Positions 54,164-61,525 of a stretch of 64,000 nt of DNA are shown here, one piece after another. The notes under the pieces were generated by a model. That model searched no databases. It saw only the letters and a program-made list of their open reading frames with translations, and was not told where the DNA came from. The DNA comes from Dehalococcoidia bacterium (GTDB lineage Bacteria > Chloroflexota > Dehalococcoidia > UBA2979). The first letter of the stretch is position 1; every line of letters begins with the position of its first letter. The stretch lies in NCBI GenBank assembly GCA_965219085.1, contig OZ244720.1, forward strand, positions 2,464,001-2,528,000. The letters run 5' to 3'. A program made the position numbers and the translations under genes.

Positions 54164-55930
54164 GTGAGCGTTGATGCGTGGCTGACCCTCGCGGTCATCG
54201 CGGTCACGGTCGTGGTGATGCTGCGCGGGCTCGCGCCGCCCTCGCTGGCGCTGCTCGGCGCAGCGGTCGTGCTCATGGCGGCGGGGGTGACCGAGCCCGA
54301 GCAGGCCCTCTCCGGGTTCGCCAACCCCGCGCCGTTCACCGTCGGCGCGCTGCTGGTGGTGGCGCGCGCGGTGCACGAGACGGGCGCCCTCGCGCCGGCG
54401 CTCTCGACGATGCTTGGCGGCGGGCGCAGCTTCCTGCAGGCAGGCGTGCGCCTGCTGGCGCCGACGGCGGCCGCCTCGGCGTTCCTCAGCAACACCTCGA
54501 TCGTCGCGATCCTGACGCCGGCCGTCCTGGAGTGGAGCGACCGGCAGGGCATGCCGCCGTCGCGCTACCTGATGCCGCTCTCCTTCGCTGCCGTGCTCGG
54601 CGGGACGATGACCGTGCTCGGCACCTCGACGAACGTGGCGGTGGCCGGGCTGGTCGAGAGCGCGGGGATGGCGCCGATCGGGCTCTTCGAGGTGGCGAAG
54701 CTCGGACTGCCGCTGACCGTCGTGGGCCTCGTCGTCATCGTCGTGCTGGCGCCGCGCGTGCTGCCACCGCGCGCCGGCCCGCGCGCGAGCCTCGGCGCCG
54801 GGTCCCGGGAATACACCATGGAAATGGTGGTCGAGTCCGGCGGCCCGCTCGAGGGCGCCGAGGTCGAGTCGGGCGGCCTGCGCAGCCTGAACGGCGTCTA
54901 CCTCGTGGAACTTGAGCGCCCCGGCTACACCATCGCGCCGGTGTCGCCGCGGACGGTGCTGCGCGGGGAGGACCGCCTGCGCTTCGTCGGGCGCGTCGAC
55001 GACGTTGTGGACCTCCACACCATCGACGGGCTGCGGTCGAGCGAGGACGGGCAGCTGGCGCAACTCGGCACCGACACGGGCGCGATCTACGAGGTGGTGC
55101 TGGGGCAGTCGTCGCCGGTGGTGGGGCAGACGATTCGCGACTCGGAGTTCCGTGGCCACTACCAGGCTGCCGTGCTGGCCGTGCACCGCGCCGGGCGCCG
55201 CATCGACGCGAAGCTTGGCGACGTGCAGATGCGCGTCGGCGATACGTTGCTGCTGATCGGTGACGATGACTTCGAGAGCCAGTGGGGCGAACAGCCCGAC
55301 TTCTTGCTGGTATCGGGCGTTGGTGAGCTCGCGCGCCGCGGCGTGCAGCGCCGCGCGCTGGTGGTCGCGCCGCTCGTCGCCGCGATGGTGGTGCTGGCCG
55401 CGACGGACGTCCTGACGCTGCTCGAGGCGGCCCTGCTGGCAGCGCTGGCGGTGGTCGCGCTGCGCGTGCTGACCCCGATCCAGGCGCGGAACGCGATCGA
55501 TCTCGACATCGTGGTGACGATCGCCTCGGCGTTCGGGCTCGCTGCGGCTATCCAGCAGTCCGGCCTCGCTGATCAGTTCGCGATGGGCATCGTCGACGTG
55601 TTCGATGGCCTCGGGCCGCGCGGCGTGCTGCTCGGCCTCGTGCTCGCCACGATCGTGCTCACGGAGCTGGTCACGAACAGCGCGGCGGCCGTGCTCATGT
55701 TCCCGGTCGCAGTCGCCGCCGCGCAGGCGACGGGGCTTGACCCGCGCAGCACGGCGATCGCCATCGCGATCACCGCGTCGGCGTCGTTCCTGACGCCGAT
55801 CGGCTACCAGACGAACATCATGGTCTACGGGCCGGGGGGCTATCGGTTCCCGGACTACGCGCGGCTCGGCGCACCGTTATCGCTCACGGTGATCATCGTC
55901 GTCGTGCTGGCGACGCCTGTGTTCTGGTAG
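54164..55930 (+). CDS. SLC13/CitMHS permease with two TrkA-C domains (probable sulfate uptake)
   Basis: SAFLSNT, LGG..T.LGTSTN, TELVTN.A, F.TPIGYQTN.MVYGPGGY.F.DY. Confidence 0.88.
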   Translation: MSVDAWLTLAVIAVTVVVMLRGLAPPSLALLGAAVVLMAAGVTEPEQALSGFANPAPFTVGALLVVARAVHETGALAPALSTMLGGGRSFLQAGVRLLAPTAAASAFLSNTSIVAILTPAVLEWSDRQGMPPSRYLMPLSFAAVLGGTMTVLGTSTNVAVAGLVESAGMAPIGLFEVAKLGLPLTVVGLVVIVVLAPRVLPPRAGPRASLGAGSREYTMEMVVESGGPLEGAEVESGGLRSLNGVYLVELERPGYTIAPVSPRTVLRGEDRLRFVGRVDDVVDLHTIDGLRSSEDGQLAQLGTDTGAIYEVVLGQSSPVVGQTIRDSEFRGHYQAAVLAVHRAGRRIDAKLGDVQMRVGDTLLLIGDDDFESQWGEQPDFLLVSGVGELARRGVQRRALVVAPLVAAMVVLAATDVLTLLEAALLAALAVVALRVLTPIQARNAIDLDIVVTIASAFGLAAAIQQSGLADQFAMGIVDVFDGLGPRGVLLGLVLATIVLTELVTNSAAAVLMFPVAVAAAQATGLDPRSTAIAIAITASASFLTPIGYQTNIMVYGPGGYRFPDYARLGAPLSLTVIIVVVLATPVFW

Positions 55931-55952: not shown

Positions 55953-57128
55953 CTACGCGGCGCCCCCGCTGTAAGCCTCGACGAGCACCTCGGCGACCTC
56001 TGGCCGTGTGAACTCCGGTGGCGGCGCCTCGCCGGCTTCGAGCATCTGCCGCACGCGCGTGCCCGACAGGAAGACGTGGGCATCGTTGCCGTGCGGGCAG
56101 GTGTGCGAGCTGGCCATGCCCTCGCAGCTCACGCAATAGAAGCTGTGCTCGAACTTGAGCGGCTGGATCGCCAGCGCGCCGGGCTCGAGTTCGTCGAAGA
56201 TCTCCTGCGCTTCGTACGTGCCGTAGTAGTCGCCGACGCCCGCGTGGTCGCGGCCGACGATGAAGTGAGAGCAGCCGTAGTTCTGGCGCATGATTGCGTG
56301 GAAGATCGCCTCGCGCGGCCCCGCGTAGCGCATCGAGGCGGGGAGCACGGACAGCACGACGCGGTCCTGGGCGTAGTAGCCGTCGAGCAGCACCTGGTAG
56401 CAGCGCATCCGCACGTCGGCCGGTATGTCGCCTTCCTTGGTCTCGCCCACGAGCGGGTGCAGCAGCAGGCCGTCGACGACCTCGAGCGCGACCTTCGTGA
56501 GGTACTCGTGCGCGCGGTGCACGGGGTTGCGCGTCTGGAATCCGACGACGGTCTTCCAGCCACGCTCGGCGAACGCGGCGCGAGTCTGCGCCGGCGTCAG
56601 CCGGTGCGCGGGGAACTCGGGATCGGGCGGCAGCGCGAAGACGCGCACCGGCCCGCCGAGCAGCATGTCGGCCTGCTCGTTGACCGCCTCTACACCCGGG
56701 TGCGCCGGGTCGTTGGTGCGGTAGACCTGCTCCGCCTCGCGCTCACGGTCGTAGGCGTAGGCGTCGCCGGCGTCCATCACGGCGAGCAGCGTGCCGTCCT
56801 CGGTGGCGAGGGCGATCTCGCGGCCGGCGAGCTCCGCGGCTTGCCCGGACGTGACGGGGAGCGTGATCGGCACGCTCCACACGGCGCCGTCGGCGAGGCG
56901 CATGCCCTCGACGACGGCACGGTAGTCGGCCTCGTCCATGAAGCCGCCGAGGGGGCTGAGCGCGCCCACGGCGAGCAGTTCGAGGTCGGTGACCTGGCGC
57001 ACGCCGAGCCGCAGCACGGGCAGCTCTTGCGCCATCTCCGCGAGCGCCACGACCTCCTCGTGCGTGACGAGCAGTTCACGGAGCACGCCGCCGTGCGGGG
57101 GGACGAGTTGCGATGTGTCGGGGCTCAT
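55953..57128 (-). CDS. sat: Sulfate adenylyltransferase
   Basis: [45 protein letters not shown]. Confidence 0.96.
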
Positions 57129-57682
57129 TGGGCGGCTCCGGTCGGGATCAACTCCTGGGACTCGAGGTAGCTCACGATCGCGCCGAGCGATTGCTCCTCG
57201 GTCTGCGACTCGGAGTTGACGCGGACCTCGGGATGCTCGGGCGCCTCGTACGGGTCGGAGATGCCGGTGAAGTTCTGAATCTCGCCGCGCAGGGCCTTCT
57301 CGTAGAGGCCCTTGACGTCGCGGCGGGTCAACTCCTCGATGGAGCAATCGACGTGGATCTCGACGAACTCGGCAGGCTCGTCGGCGATGCTGGCGCGCAC
57401 CTCGTTGCGGATCTGCTCGTACGGGGAGATGGCCGCGGTGATGACGGCCACGCCGTTGCGGGACAGCAGCCGCGCGACGTACCCGATGCGCCGGATGTTG
57501 GTGTCGCGGTCCTCCTTGGAGAACCCGAGCCCCCTGGAGAGGTTCGTGCGCACCTCGTCACCGTCGAGGACCTCTACGTTGCGTCCGCGTGCCGTGAGCA
57601 CGGGCGCGAGGTATTCGGCGAGTGTCGATTTACCGGAGCCGGAGAGGCCCGTGAACCACAGGATGATGCCGCGATCACTCAC
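57125..57682 (-). CDS. cysC: Adenylyl-sulfate kinase
   Basis: [34 protein letters not shown]. Confidence 0.96.
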
Positions 57683-58381: not shown

Positions 58382-58636
58382 CTAGCGGCCGACCTTCTTC
58401 CAGAGCAGGATGCGCCTGGTCTTGTCCTCCCACGAGGAGCGAACCTTGGTCCCGGCTTCCCTTGCTGCTTCGGACAGGAGCCGCTTGATCCTGGTGGGAT
58501 TCTCACCTCGTCCGAGTTCGATCTTACCGGCATCGGAGGCACTCACGGCCTCGACATACTCAGCCCGCTCTTCGGCTGCCGATCGGGCGCGGCCAATGAG
58601 GACCTCGGAGGGCTCCATGGGAGTGAATTTGGGCAC
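58382..58636 (-). CDS. Small basic hypothetical protein (84 aa), possibly DNA-binding
   Basis: AAGGAG RBS; own TAAGCT -10-like element; K/R-rich. Confidence 0.65.
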   Translation of the reverse strand: MPKFTPMEPSEVLIGRARSAAEERAEYVEAVSASDAGKIELGRGENPTRIKRLLSEAAREAGTKVRSSWEDKTRRILLWKKVGR

Positions 58637-58745
58637 CGCTGGCTCCTTCGACTCATCTCATATCAGGCGCGGCTGAGCTTACGCAATACGCGTTGATTGA
58701 TCCAGTCGATTTGTTGGACAACAGCGCGCCTGAAGCGTACGGCGC

Positions 58746-58970
58746 TTACTCTTCCTTTTCGTGGTGGTGGTGAGAGCCCGTACCGGGCTCGTCGGAAACC
58801 GTTCAGCAACCTGGCTCACCGTGATTGCCGCAACACATCGAGAGCGTTCGTATCTTAGTCCAGTAGTTGCGGGTGAAGAGCCGCAGCTTCGTTGCGAACG
58901 GCGCGTCGTAGTCGCGCCAGTTGCGGCCGACGCCACCGAAACGCCCGATCCGGTCCTGTGGTTCCTGCAC
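58746..58970 (-). CDS. Candidate small selenoprotein (CCGNHGEPGC-U; 74 aa with read-through, 55 aa if TGA at 58805-58803 is a stop)
   Basis: GTG overlaps upstream TAG; in-frame TGA after Cys; SECIS-like hairpin; read-through gives TVSDEPGTGSHHHHEKEE then TAA. Confidence 0.6.
58772..58802 (-). promoter_or_regulatory. Putative bacterial SECIS element
   Basis: UGA, 12 nt, then GAGCCC-GGUAC-GGGCUC; apical GGU begins 18 nt after UGA; stem extends by GA/UC with a bulged C. Confidence 0.55.
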
Positions 58971-60292
58971 TACGGTATCGAGGGATCGTAGTCCATGCCG
59001 ATGTGACCGGCATGCTCGAACTCCTCGTACTCCGCGTCCGTGAAGCCCATGATCTCCTTGTAGACGTACTCGTTGTCCTCGCCGAGCCGAGGGGCGTGCC
59101 GCGCAGATCGAGGGTTCTGGCCGGTCGTGCTCCACAACGGGCCGGCGTGGCGTTGGGTTCCGGCCTCGGGGTGGGTGATCGTGCGCCAGAAGCCGCGTGC
59201 TTCGTGCTGCCGGTTCTCGAGTACGTCGCGCTCGTGCATGGCGACGCCGGCGGGGATGCCCTCGAGCTGCAGACGCTCCATCACCCAGTAGGCGTCCTTG
59301 ACCGCCGTCCACTCCGCGATGCGCGCATCGAGGGCGTCACGGTGTTCGTGCCGCGACTCCATGGTTGCGAAGCGCGGATCCGAGTCGAGTTCGAGCTGGT
59401 GCATCACCCCGCAGAGGCGGGCCCACTCCTCCTCGGACCGCGCCGCGATCGCGATCCAGCGGTCGGTGCCCCAGCACGGGTACACGTTGTGGGGCGCCAT
59501 CGTGGGGTGCGTGTTGCCGAGTTGCTCGTGGACGCGCCCGTTCATGGTGTAGTCCATGATGAAGTCGCCGATGAACGGGACGAAGTTCTCCGCTGTCGCT
59601 GCCTCGATGAGCAGCCCCTCGCCCGTCTTGCGTCGCTGGCGCAGCCCCATCAGGAACGCCAGGGCGCCTCCCACTCCGGACGCCGCGTCGGACGGCACGC
59701 CCGAGGGGGCGTAGTCGAGGCTGAGGTGGGGGTAGGCGCGCAGTACGGGGTGGCCGAGCAGCGCCTCCATGTGGTTGCCCCATGTGCGATAGCCGCGGTA
59801 CGGGCCGTCGAGGCCGAAGGCCGGCACGCGCAGCATCACGAACTGCGGGTTGATCTTCGACACGCGCTCCCACGTGATGCCCTGCTTCTCGATGTTGGGC
59901 GGCAAGTTGTTCTCGACCAGTCCGTCGGACTTCTCGATGAGCCGGTCGAGCACGGCCTGGCCCTCGGCCGTGCCGAGGTTGATGGTCACCGAGCGCTTGT
60001 TATGGCCGTGGTCGTTGAAGTTCGGTGCGCGGTTCCACGGCCGATCGCCCAGCAGGTCGTCGGGATACGCGCCCCCCTGGTTCGCGCTGTTGATCGCGAA
60101 CTCCGGCGGGGGGCGTGCGATCAGCCCGCGCGTCTGCGGCGCGAAGTGGTGCAGGGATTCCACGCGGATGATCTCCGCGCCCCAGTCCGCGAGCTGCATC
60201 GTGCCGTACGGGCCGGCCCACACCACCGTGAAGTCGATGATGCGGATGCCGTCCAGGGGGAGCCGCTTGCCGTCGGAAGGTAAGCTCGTCAT
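58970..60292 (-). CDS. Family III (CaiB/BaiF) CoA-transferase, catalytic-Asp-bearing
   Basis: PLDGIRIID, WAGP, LAD.GAE.I..E, NKRS, FG.DGPY, SD..SG, AP.LGE. Confidence 0.92.
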   Translation of the reverse strand: MTSLPSDGKRLPLDGIRIIDFTVVWAGPYGTMQLADWGAEIIRVESLHHFAPQTRGLIARPPPEFAINSANQGGAYPDDLLGDRPWNRAPNFNDHGHNKRSVTINLGTAEGQAVLDRLIEKSDGLVENNLPPNIEKQGITWERVSKINPQFVMLRVPAFGLDGPYRGYRTWGNHMEALLGHPVLRAYPHLSLDYAPSGVPSDAASGVGGALAFLMGLRQRRKTGEGLLIEAATAENFVPFIGDFIMDYTMNGRVHEQLGNTHPTMAPHNVYPCWGTDRWIAIAARSEEEWARLCGVMHQLELDSDPRFATMESRHEHRDALDARIAEWTAVKDAYWVMERLQLEGIPAGVAMHERDVLENRQHEARGFWRTITHPEAGTQRHAGPLWSTTGQNPRSARHAPRLGEDNEYVYKEIMGFTDAEYEEFEHAGHIGMDYDPSIP

Positions 60293-60310: not shown

Positions 60311-61525
60311 CTAGATCACGCTGGCGTCGCGCAGCGCGCCGAGCTCGTCGGCGCTGAGGCCAAGCTCCCCGCCGAGCACGTCCTCGGTGTGTTCGCCGAG
60401 CAGCGGCGCGCGCTGGCGCTCCGGCATCGGCTCGCCGCGGTGCAGGGTGGAGTGGAAGCCGGGGTAGCGGATCGGGCCGGTCGTTGGGTGGTCGATCTCC
60501 TGGAAGAACTCCCGAGCCTGGAAGTTCACGTCCTCGAGCAGGTCGCCGACGGTGTTGAGCGGGCCGCCGAGGACGCCGAAGCGCTCGCACTCCGCGCGCA
60601 CCTCGGCCTTGGTGCGGGCCAGCAGCCACGGGATGAGGATCGTCGCGAACTCCTGGGCGCGCTCGGTCTTGGCGAGCTCGGCGACGCTCGACCAGTCGGG
60701 GTGCGAGAGCAGGTCCTCGCGGCCGACCATGCGGATCATGCGGTTGACGAGGCCGGCCCCCGCGTTGAGTGCGAAGTAGCCGTCGGCGCAGGGGAAGATG
60801 CCGCTGCCGATCGCCCCGGCGAGCCCGCCGCGGCCTGCCAGTTGCCCGTTGTACTGGTACGAGAGCGTGCGCCCGAGGCGGAGGTCGATGGAGTGGGTGT
60901 GCGCCTCGAAGATGCTGATGTCCAGGTGCTCACCCTCGCCGCTCATCTCCGCGCTCATCAGGCCCATCGAGGTGGCGAGCGCGGCAACGTAGCCGGCGTG
61001 GTACGTGGCGTGGTGGCCTGCCGTCTTCAGCGGCTCGTGGTCCGGGTCGCCGAAGCCGATCATGTTGCCCATGGCGAGCAGCGTCAGGTCCGTGCCCTGC
61101 CAGTCGCGGTAGGGGCCGTCCTGACCAAAGTTGCTGATCGAGGTCAGCACGACGCCGGGGTTCACCTCGCGCAGCACATCGAAGCCGAGACCCAGGCGGT
61201 CGAGCGTGCCGGGCGCGAAGTTCTCGATGACGACCTGCGCGCTCGCGGCGAGTTCGAGTGCGAGTTCGTGTCCTCGCGCGCTCTTGAGGTCGAGTGTGAC
61301 GCTCCGCTTGTTGGTGTTGAGCATCAGGAAGACGCCGCTGCGCTCCAGTCCGGGCTCGTCCTGGTAGAACGGCGGGAGCGAACGGGCGGGGTCGCCGGTG
61401 ACGGGCTGCTCGATCTTGATCACATCGGCGCCGTAGTCGCCGAGCACGCGGGTGCAGAACGGCCCGGAGGTGTAGCGCGTCAGGTCCAGTACACGGACGT
61501 CGTCGAGCGGCATCACGCCAGGCAC
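60311..61525 (-). CDS. Family III (CaiB/BaiF) CoA-transferase-like subunit
   Basis: RVLDLT, GP..TR.LGDYGADVIKIE, NKRS, SNFGQDGPY, APLLGEHT. Confidence 0.92.
   Translation of the reverse strand: MPGVMPLDDVRVLDLTRYTSGPFCTRVLGDYGADVIKIEQPVTGDPARSLPPFYQDEPGLERSGVFLMLNTNKRSVTLDLKSARGHELALELAASAQVVIENFAPGTLDRLGLGFDVLREVNPGVVLTSISNFGQDGPYRDWQGTDLTLLAMGNMIGFGDPDHEPLKTAGHHATYHAGYVAALATSMGLMSAEMSGEGEHLDISIFEAHTHSIDLRLGRTLSYQYNGQLAGRGGLAGAIGSGIFPCADGYFALNAGAGLVNRMIRMVGREDLLSHPDWSSVAELAKTERAQEFATILIPWLLARTKAEVRAECERFGVLGGPLNTVGDLLEDVNFQAREFFQEIDHPTTGPIRYPGFHSTLHRGEPMPERQRAPLLGEHTEDVLGGELGLSADELGALRDASVI

Follow-up and report, generated by a model that had tools for sequence, protein, structure and literature searches.

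A small gene following a CoA-transferase in a Dehalococcoidia genome is very probably a selenoprotein gene of a widespread family that gene callers cut at UGA

In a genome of the Dehalococcoidia, on the minus strand of the window (the whole stretch of 64,000 nucleotides analysed here), a short reading frame follows a gene for a family III CoA-transferase. Its start codon, GTG (58970-58968), overlaps by one base the TAG (58972-58970) that ends the 440-residue CoA-transferase frame. After 55 codons, the last ten of which read CCGNHGEPGC, it meets a TGA. Past the TGA the same frame continues with TVSDEPGTGSHHHHEKEE before closing at a TAA (58748-58746). Is the TGA a stop, with a product that ends in ..PGC, or is it read as selenocysteine (Sec), with a product that continues into a His-containing tail?

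An earlier note, made from the sequence alone, had proposed a selenoprotein with a SECIS-like hairpin behind the UGA, cut at that codon by annotation pipelines and coupled to CoA-transferases. The elements it listed (the coordinates, the overlap of GTG and TAG, the TGA, a hairpin 12 nt further on and a frame running to TAA) are all found in the sequence; the selenoprotein, its hairpin and its truncation by pipelines held up on comparison with relatives, and the coupling to CoA-transferases did not. Our reading, to which we assign a probability of about 0.88, is that a genuine gene occupies 58970-58746 (minus strand) and encodes a selenoprotein of 74 residues, whose UGA would be decoded as Sec by way of the hairpin, and whose role would lie in metal binding or redox chemistry. 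The small gene very probably belongs to a widespread family that gene callers truncate at the UGA. Its features are as follows.

58746..58970, minus strand: the whole gene, with the GTG start (58970-58968), 55 codons, the putative Sec-UGA, an 18-codon tail and the TAA (58748-58746); predicted product 74 residues
58806..58922, minus strand: conserved core, residues N17-C55 (NWRDYDAPF..KLRL..RN.W.K.RT..CCGNHGEPGC), from the 24-sequence alignment, 83/83 database homologues and the structure model
Within the core 58806..58922, minus strand: two predicted helices, then a Cys-rich loop (structure model)
58803..58835, minus strand: the CCGNHGEPGC-U motif, with C46, C47, C55 and U56 invariant in the family alignment
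58803..58805, minus strand: in-frame TGA, putatively read as selenocysteine (U56); TGA is conserved in relatives and TGC or TGT takes its place in Cys forms
58774..58790, minus strand: SECIS-like hairpin GAGCCC-GGUAC-GGGCUC, encoding E-P-G-T-G-S (covariation, rule test, fold and published rules)
58749..58802, minus strand: tail TVSDEPGTGS-HHHH-EKEE, translated only with UGA decoding (sequence; tails of the Cys forms are comparable)
58761-58772, minus strand: the four CAC codons of the tail (sequence)
58970..60292, minus strand: upstream family III CoA-transferase, 440 residues (domain matches); context only, not a conserved partner
60311..61525, minus strand: second family III CoA-transferase, 404 residues (domain matches); context only

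The position of the start is consistent across relatives: homologues begin about 45 codons before the Cys-Cys pair, with GTG or ATG at that point in all six members of the closest group, and a 55-residue database protein (P0001) starts at the same place as the gene in the window. A 169-residue open frame in the same phase (58803-59312, minus strand), which overlaps the CoA-transferase in another frame, was considered as a longer version of the gene and rejected as an open-frame artefact of high G+C content, because homologues start some 45 codons before the Cys-Cys pair. Contigs from three RNA libraries of two studies match the neighbouring 84-residue frame and parts of the CoA-transferase; none lies over 58746-58970, which has no bearing on the question either way.

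Homologues, Cys forms and the selenocysteine machinery

The read-through peptide, searched against 60 relatives in six frames, gave about 38 strong matches, each with exactly one internal TGA and each extending beyond it to query residues 57-74. Among class-level relatives the TGA stands directly after ..PGC in 36 of 36 copies (30 loci), while the 29 phylum-level loci comprise 25 with TGA, three with TGC and one that is frameshifted. A profile search across 401 genomes of the phylum, the source of these 29 loci, found matches in 45; tallies over these 401 include five genomes flagged as unpublished (G327, G201, G283, G097 and G229), on which none of the conclusions depends. In a pattern scan of records that represent each species by one genome, at least 532 loci were confirmed. 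By the names that depositors gave them, the best 80 of these divide into 56 Chloroflexota-type, 22 Actinomycetota-type and two Bacillota-type records, and the 86 copies that they hold, spanning the three phyla, carry TGA in 85 cases and TAA in one; the class-level, phylum-level and named-genome samples share some of their members, and kin do not count as independent.

The proteins of the family share a core of about 40 residues with the consensus N-W-x-x-Y-D-A-P-F..K-L-R-L..R-N..CCGxxG(E/Q)PGC. The 24-sequence alignment shows no variation at P, N, C, C, G, G, G, C or in the Sec column, and within a 65-residue fragment the invariant columns are C37, C38, G39, G42, G45, C46 and C47. Tandem duplicates about 330 nt apart were noted in six genomes of the window's genus (loci L027, L028, L029, L031, L032 and L033), each copy with its own TGA, hairpin and His-Pro-rich tail.

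Protein databases see a different end to the gene. A word-indexed database yielded 83 homologues of 42-91 residues, all 83 of which stop exactly at ..PGC and all named ones among which are called 'hypothetical protein'. The profile, run against 1.84 billion representatives, gave 461 proteins at E<=0.001 (131 at E<=1e-10); among the best 150 of the 461, 132 end at ..GC, nine have Cys at the Sec column and continue, five have Trp, one (P0134) has Arg and three are irregular. In the five with Trp (P0085, P0120, P0139, P0186 and P0220) the gene calls evidently read TGA as Trp. With a conserved TGA, a tail that appears to be coding and 83 of 83 homologues called to ..PGC, the picture agrees with the earlier proposal of a CC-x7-CU selenoprotein of about 74 residues that pipelines truncate.

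The same proposal had named TGA or a Cys codon after PGC in homologues as support, and TAA or TAG as evidence to the contrary. TGA or Cys is what follows PGC, with the exception of one TAA, one Arg and one frameshifted copy; the contrary case was thus seen once, against TGA in the other 85 of 86 copies. The single TAA among the best 80 of the at least 532 records belongs to L120, a record named Pelotomaculum sp. UBA4789, where the downstream His-rich frame is intact and in phase and a weakened hairpin is still there. This suggests a recent change from TGA to TAA or a sequencing error. A frameshift within the CCG..PGC motif was noted in the copy of L060/L082.

Cys codons (TGC or TGT) occupy the Sec column at four genome loci (L054, L059, L062 and L081), and in the same rule test that the TGA-form hairpins were put through (below) none of the four (0/4) passes. 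The nine Cys-form proteins among the best 150 of 461 representatives are translated without recoding and have tails rich in His and acidic residues. As to the host, selA is present in 38 of the 40 phylum-sample genomes with a TGA inside the match, over a base rate of 308 in 401 (77%), a co-occurrence that is only mildly informative because kin are not independent. The two TGA-form genomes without selA are fragmented assemblies; both encode a Sec-type selD and a tRNA-Sec that scores above threshold (69.7 and 58.1 bits). Among the four Cys-form genomes, selA is missing from two: G197, in which tRNA-Sec and selD matches also fall below threshold, and G047, which is 90% complete. On this comparison the Cys forms behave as would be expected for Sec/Cys pairing.

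The genome of the window, a single contig of 3.3 Mb with 69.8% G+C, has the complete set of Sec genes for which the earlier note had proposed to look (selA, selB, selC and selD): selA scores 543 bits, selB 301 bits, tRNA-Sec 73.7 bits and selD 366 bits, the last being of the Sec type with an in-frame TGA of its own. TGA also closes more of the long open frames (2073 of 3916) than any other stop does, and is therefore not reassigned genome-wide. The selD gene (G000:C1:475684-476619, L002; outside the window) is thus a selenoprotein gene itself, with the TGA in a ..CGG-U-AGK.. motif. Two candidate hairpins follow its UGA, one of them with a loop containing G-U; the comparison with the window hairpin is not clean.

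Hairpin and tail downstream of the UGA

The hairpin in the window can be drawn with 6 bp and a 5-nt loop or with 7 bp and a GUA loop; its stem begins 12 nt after the UGA and its loop 18-19 nt after it. The rules for bacterial SECIS elements (bSECIS), as laid out in the available portion of a 2026 review, specify a loop of 3-9 nt, a stem of 4-16 bp, a G in the first two loop positions, a distance of 16-37 nt from the UGA and an energy of -7.5 kcal/mol or lower (PMC13188914). In a simple contiguous-stem test of these rules the window hairpin shows 7 bp, the loop GUA, a spacing of 19 nt and -11.5 kcal/mol, all within the limits. The same holds for 51 of 58 copies, and for 79 of 85 copies in a second set drawn from named genomes (the best 80 of at least 532 records); seven and six copies, respectively, fail the test.

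How often would such a hairpin follow a TGA by chance? As controls, 1500 TGA ends of open frames of at least 300 codons were sampled from the same genome. The rules are satisfied by 231 of them (15%), of which 99 have a spacing of 16-24 nt and 28 (1.9% of the 1500) are also as strong. A 53-nt segment of the window folds with a minimum free energy of -15.8 kcal/mol (z = -1.40), and 20 of 200 shuffled sequences fold equally well. On its own, the window hairpin is unremarkable at 69.8% G+C. Since the window alone is weak, the case rests on comparison with relatives, in which the conservation of TGA, hairpin and downstream frame is far beyond chance.

RNAalifold applied to an alignment of 36 sequences recovers the same 6-bp stem. 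Pairing is retained in 94.9% of 216 cells and compensatory changes affect four of the six pairs (19 cells), a covariation score that none of 500 shuffles reached; when the 3' arm is slid by 1-3 columns, pairing falls to 16-52%. The loop G-U is at least 90% conserved, and the hairpin lies 16-24 nt past the TGA in the copies. The peptide that it encodes differs from clade to clade while the stem is kept, which points to constraint at the level of RNA rather than protein; the hairpin, on this evidence from alignments, is under RNA-level selection. What the earlier note had called a SECIS-like hairpin, to be checked by covariation, is therefore matched by covariation in four of six pairs and by agreement with the bSECIS rules in most copies. 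A terminator scan flagged no terminator at the hairpin on the strand of the gene, and a search of 58600-59000 against Rfam returned nothing but a chance microRNA match (E 0.72).

His codons follow the hairpin in frame. In 23 genus-level copies the tails run for 16-25 codons, all in frame to a TAA or TAG, with synonymous changes among them: CAC and CAT occur 123 and 30 times, and GAC/GAT, CCG/CCC and GAA/GAG also interchange. At least three His are found in 46 of 85 tails from the best 80 of the at least 532 named genome records; many distant members have short tails without His, and the tail is not uniformly conserved. That lengths of 16-25 codons are all in phase, that His codons change synonymously and that the Cys forms have like tails argues that the frame after the TGA is coding. 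The His-rich segments would then be a property of the protein, made in the TGA-form tails only if the UGA is decoded; this follows from the tails of Cys forms, which are translated without recoding, and from the His-rich stretches N-terminal to the core in some TGA-form members. Such N-terminal stretches were seen in P0017, P0032, P0038, P0047, P0050 and P0071. A second in-frame TGA ends the tail in L039-L043, in L049 and in about one third of the copies in L084-L163.

Neighbours, alternative readings and possible role

The genomic surroundings were compared at 52 loci by taking the four longest open frames within about 1.5 kb on each side, a scope in which a more distant CoA-transferase would be missed. 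CoA_transf_3 lies directly upstream at six of the 52 loci, all from the genus of the window, and a one-base overlap or direct abutment with the CoA-transferase recurs at the same-genus loci L022-L026 and L046. At 11 other loci of the genus the gene sits between a luciferase-like monooxygenase and a Zn-dependent dehydrogenase, often as tandem small-gene duplicates. Neighbours at the remaining loci include leuB/leuD, NuoD, DUF3179, a molybdopterin oxidoreductase, a P-type ATPase for heavy metals and a pyridine-nucleotide disulfide oxidoreductase accompanied by DUF1295, among others. No conserved partner gene was found across the 52 loci within about 1.5 kb on each side. The one-base overlap probably reflects co-transcription and translational coupling, in this genus only, and does not indicate a function common to the small gene and the CoA-transferase.

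If the TGA were a plain stop, the product would be a 55-residue protein ending in ..PGC, the hairpin would be a terminator, an attenuator or an element of mRNA stability, and the tail would be untranslated. Such a reading accords with the gene callers, which end 83 of 83 homologues there, with the modest standing of the window hairpin taken alone, with the short and unremarkable tails of some members and with the one member that has TAA at the position. We regard it as very improbable, given the use of TGA and of neither other stop codon in 85 of 86 copies (from the best 80 of at least 532 named genome records), a hairpin whose distance from the TGA (16-24 nt) and G-U loop follow the SECIS rules, tails of 16-25 codons that are all in phase with synonymous changes of His codons, Cys forms that run into a like His- and acid-rich tail with no hairpin before it, and in-frame His codons after a hairpin at which the terminator scan flags nothing on the gene's strand. 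Decoding need not mean Sec: read-through of stop codons stimulated by downstream structure is known in general, and the UGA might be read by a standard tRNA (a near-cognate Trp or Cys tRNA, for example) or under a local change of code, as the W at the column in five database proteins (best 150 of 461) could be taken to say. This we consider extremely unlikely in a genome whose main stop is TGA and which has the full Sec machinery, the more so as Cys stands at the column in non-TGA forms, in the classical Sec/Cys pairing, as the hairpin agrees with the bSECIS rules and as genomes without selA carry the Cys form.

Two further readings concern what the protein is for. The earlier note had cast it as a dedicated redox or metal partner, or an acyl carrier, of the two adjacent CoA-transferases, a notion favoured by the one-base overlap, which recurs as overlap or abutment in six same-genus genomes. 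Family III CoA-transferases are not known to require such a partner; with CoA_transf_3 adjacent at only six of 52 loci, in one genus, with other neighbours at 11 loci of that very genus and different ones again in other clades, the partnership is hardly credible. A ribosomally made peptide precursor is another thought, in which the helical N-terminal part would be a leader and the Cys/Sec-rich C-terminal part, possibly with its Sec, would be modified by a maturase. The small size, the succession of a conserved N-terminal region and a Cys-rich segment, and the tandem duplicates in six genus-level genomes all fit, and a Sec-containing class of this kind, 'selenobacteriocin' (TIGR04081), is listed in the 2026 review (PMC13188914). 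No maturase or other modifying enzyme recurs at the 52 loci, however, where a radical SAM/HemN-type frame occurs once and the remaining neighbours serve unrelated housekeeping or catabolic purposes; no NCBIfam model, TIGR04081 included, matches; and the supposed core peptide would fall within the most conserved part of the protein. We hold a precursor peptide to be highly unlikely.

We return, then, to a selenoprotein made by decoding of the UGA. On comparison with relatives, the UGA at 58805-58803 would be decoded as selenocysteine, and the hairpin at 58790-58774 would recruit the organism's SelB and Sec-tRNA(Sec); like the SECIS of other bacterial selenoprotein genes, this hairpin is itself part of the coding frame. 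The product would consist of two predicted basic helices and the invariant Cys-Cys-x7-Cys-Sec cluster, and would end in a flexible tail of Gly, Pro and acidic residues, with four consecutive His in the copy of the window. The likeliest role would be the binding of a metal ion or cluster by the three thiolates, the selenolate and the tail's imidazoles, with the protein acting as a chaperone, a buffer or a sensor; alternatively, the vicinal Cys and Sec could form a redox-active selenenylsulfide.

From the invariant C, C, C and U, from the His tails and from the members with His at the N-terminus we infer a metal site or a Cys-Sec redox couple, on grounds of composition only; a conserved neighbour, family match or solved relative in support of such a role was not found among the 52 loci, Pfam, NCBIfam and the PDB. 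A bolder reading, to which we give less than even odds, is that the cluster and the His-rich tail form a metal site containing a selenolate, which would make the protein a small 'seleno-metallochaperone' or metallothionein-like buffer rather than a thiol oxidoreductase, in a family so far unrecognised although its species, mostly Chloroflexota and Actinomycetota with a few Bacillota, number in the hundreds. An AlphaFold model built on the 24-sequence alignment has two helices and a disordered Cys-rich C-terminus, with modest confidence (mean pLDDT 66). The window protein matches no Pfam or NCBIfam family at E<=1, and none of 24 members (0/24) has a credible match to either collection. Individual members gave weak matches at chance level, with a Ni/Co efflux transporter model (E 0.2) and with ZrgA (E 0.049), which mirror their runs of His, Asp and Glu. 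A profile search of the PDB gave no matches, and a search of a protein atlas gave unnamed clusters only.

His-rich tails are known from the metallochaperones UreE, HypB and SlyD, which resemble the present protein in having runs of His, Asp and Glu at a flexible terminus; those proteins are not selenoproteins and show no homology to it, and the His tail is absent from many members here. Animal thioredoxin reductase has a C-terminal Gly-Cys-Sec-Gly redox centre. The likeness lies in a Gly-Cys-Sec within a flexible C-terminal segment that could form a selenenylsulfide, whereas the present family lacks a flavoprotein domain, does not have the motif in the penultimate position, possesses an additional Cys-Cys pair and a His tail, and shows no homology. 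A close parallel in gene design is with bacterial selenoprotein genes that have an in-frame SECIS (the type being E. coli fdhF): they share the UGA, the hairpin inside the coding frame with a G in its loop, the existence of Cys homologues and a host with selA, selB, selC and selD. SaoC, KCU-star/DUF466 and MbdU, small 'CU'-motif selenoproteins in the table of the 2026 review, are likewise short proteins with a vicinal Cys-Sec near the C-terminus, but the family described here differs from them in its helical core, in the further Cys-Cys pair that precedes the motif by seven residues and in having usually 10-35 residues beyond the Sec, often rich in His; the models for these proteins (NF040734 for SaoC, NF033934 for KCU-star and NF045648 for MbdU) gave no match at E<=1. 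In SaoB, SaoC and UXX-star proteins the Sec may be a metal ligand, according to the available text of the 2026 review (PMC13188914).

The family is very probably a so far unannotated one, without a Pfam or NCBIfam model. A 2026 table names 119 prokaryotic selenoprotein families and gives for every one an identifier from Pfam, NCBIfam, TIGR, cd or PTHR (PMC13188914); this family is absent from it and matches none of its models from Pfam or NCBIfam. None of the listed families resembles the protein, whose Sec lies near the C-terminus in a CC-x7-CU cluster and not in a redox motif of the UxxC or CxxU type. The available portions of the deep-Sep and BSepDB papers describe no such family, and a prior description in their supplements or website is possible; a full-text literature search for the motif strings gave nothing relevant, and keyword searches turned up no description of the family. 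The BSepDB paper, in the part available, reports Dehalococcoidia genomes with 46-49 selenoprotein genes. If confirmed, the family would be a widespread addition to the prokaryotic selenoproteome, with at least 532 loci in one-genome-per-species collections, in place of annotations that at present give a 'hypothetical protein' cut short at the UGA or, now and then, one with Trp in the Sec column. Current predictors do poorly on features of the kind seen here (small size, rare Cys homologues, a Sec close to the C-terminus), and deep-Sep, by the available portion of its paper, may miss families without Cys homologues. The design of three Cys, one Sec and a His tail would be a useful case for what selenium adds to a metal site, and, for Chloroflexota and Actinomycetota, the hairpins would supply a clean set of SECIS elements that covary.

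Two features of the surrounding window deserve mention. Just downstream of the small gene lies a frame of 84 residues (58382-58636, minus strand) with a Shine-Dalgarno-like site, GAAGGAG, before its GTG; it has no match in Pfam or NCBIfam, and the RNA contigs from three libraries of two studies match it at about 93-97% identity. A sulfate-activation cluster adjoins the gene, with ATP-sulfurylase (55953-57347, minus strand), APS kinase (57125-57682, minus strand) and a divergent transporter of the CitMHS/Na-sulfate-symporter type with TrkA-C domains (54164-55930, plus strand). An APS kinase is also found downstream of the small gene at the same-genus loci L024 and L026.
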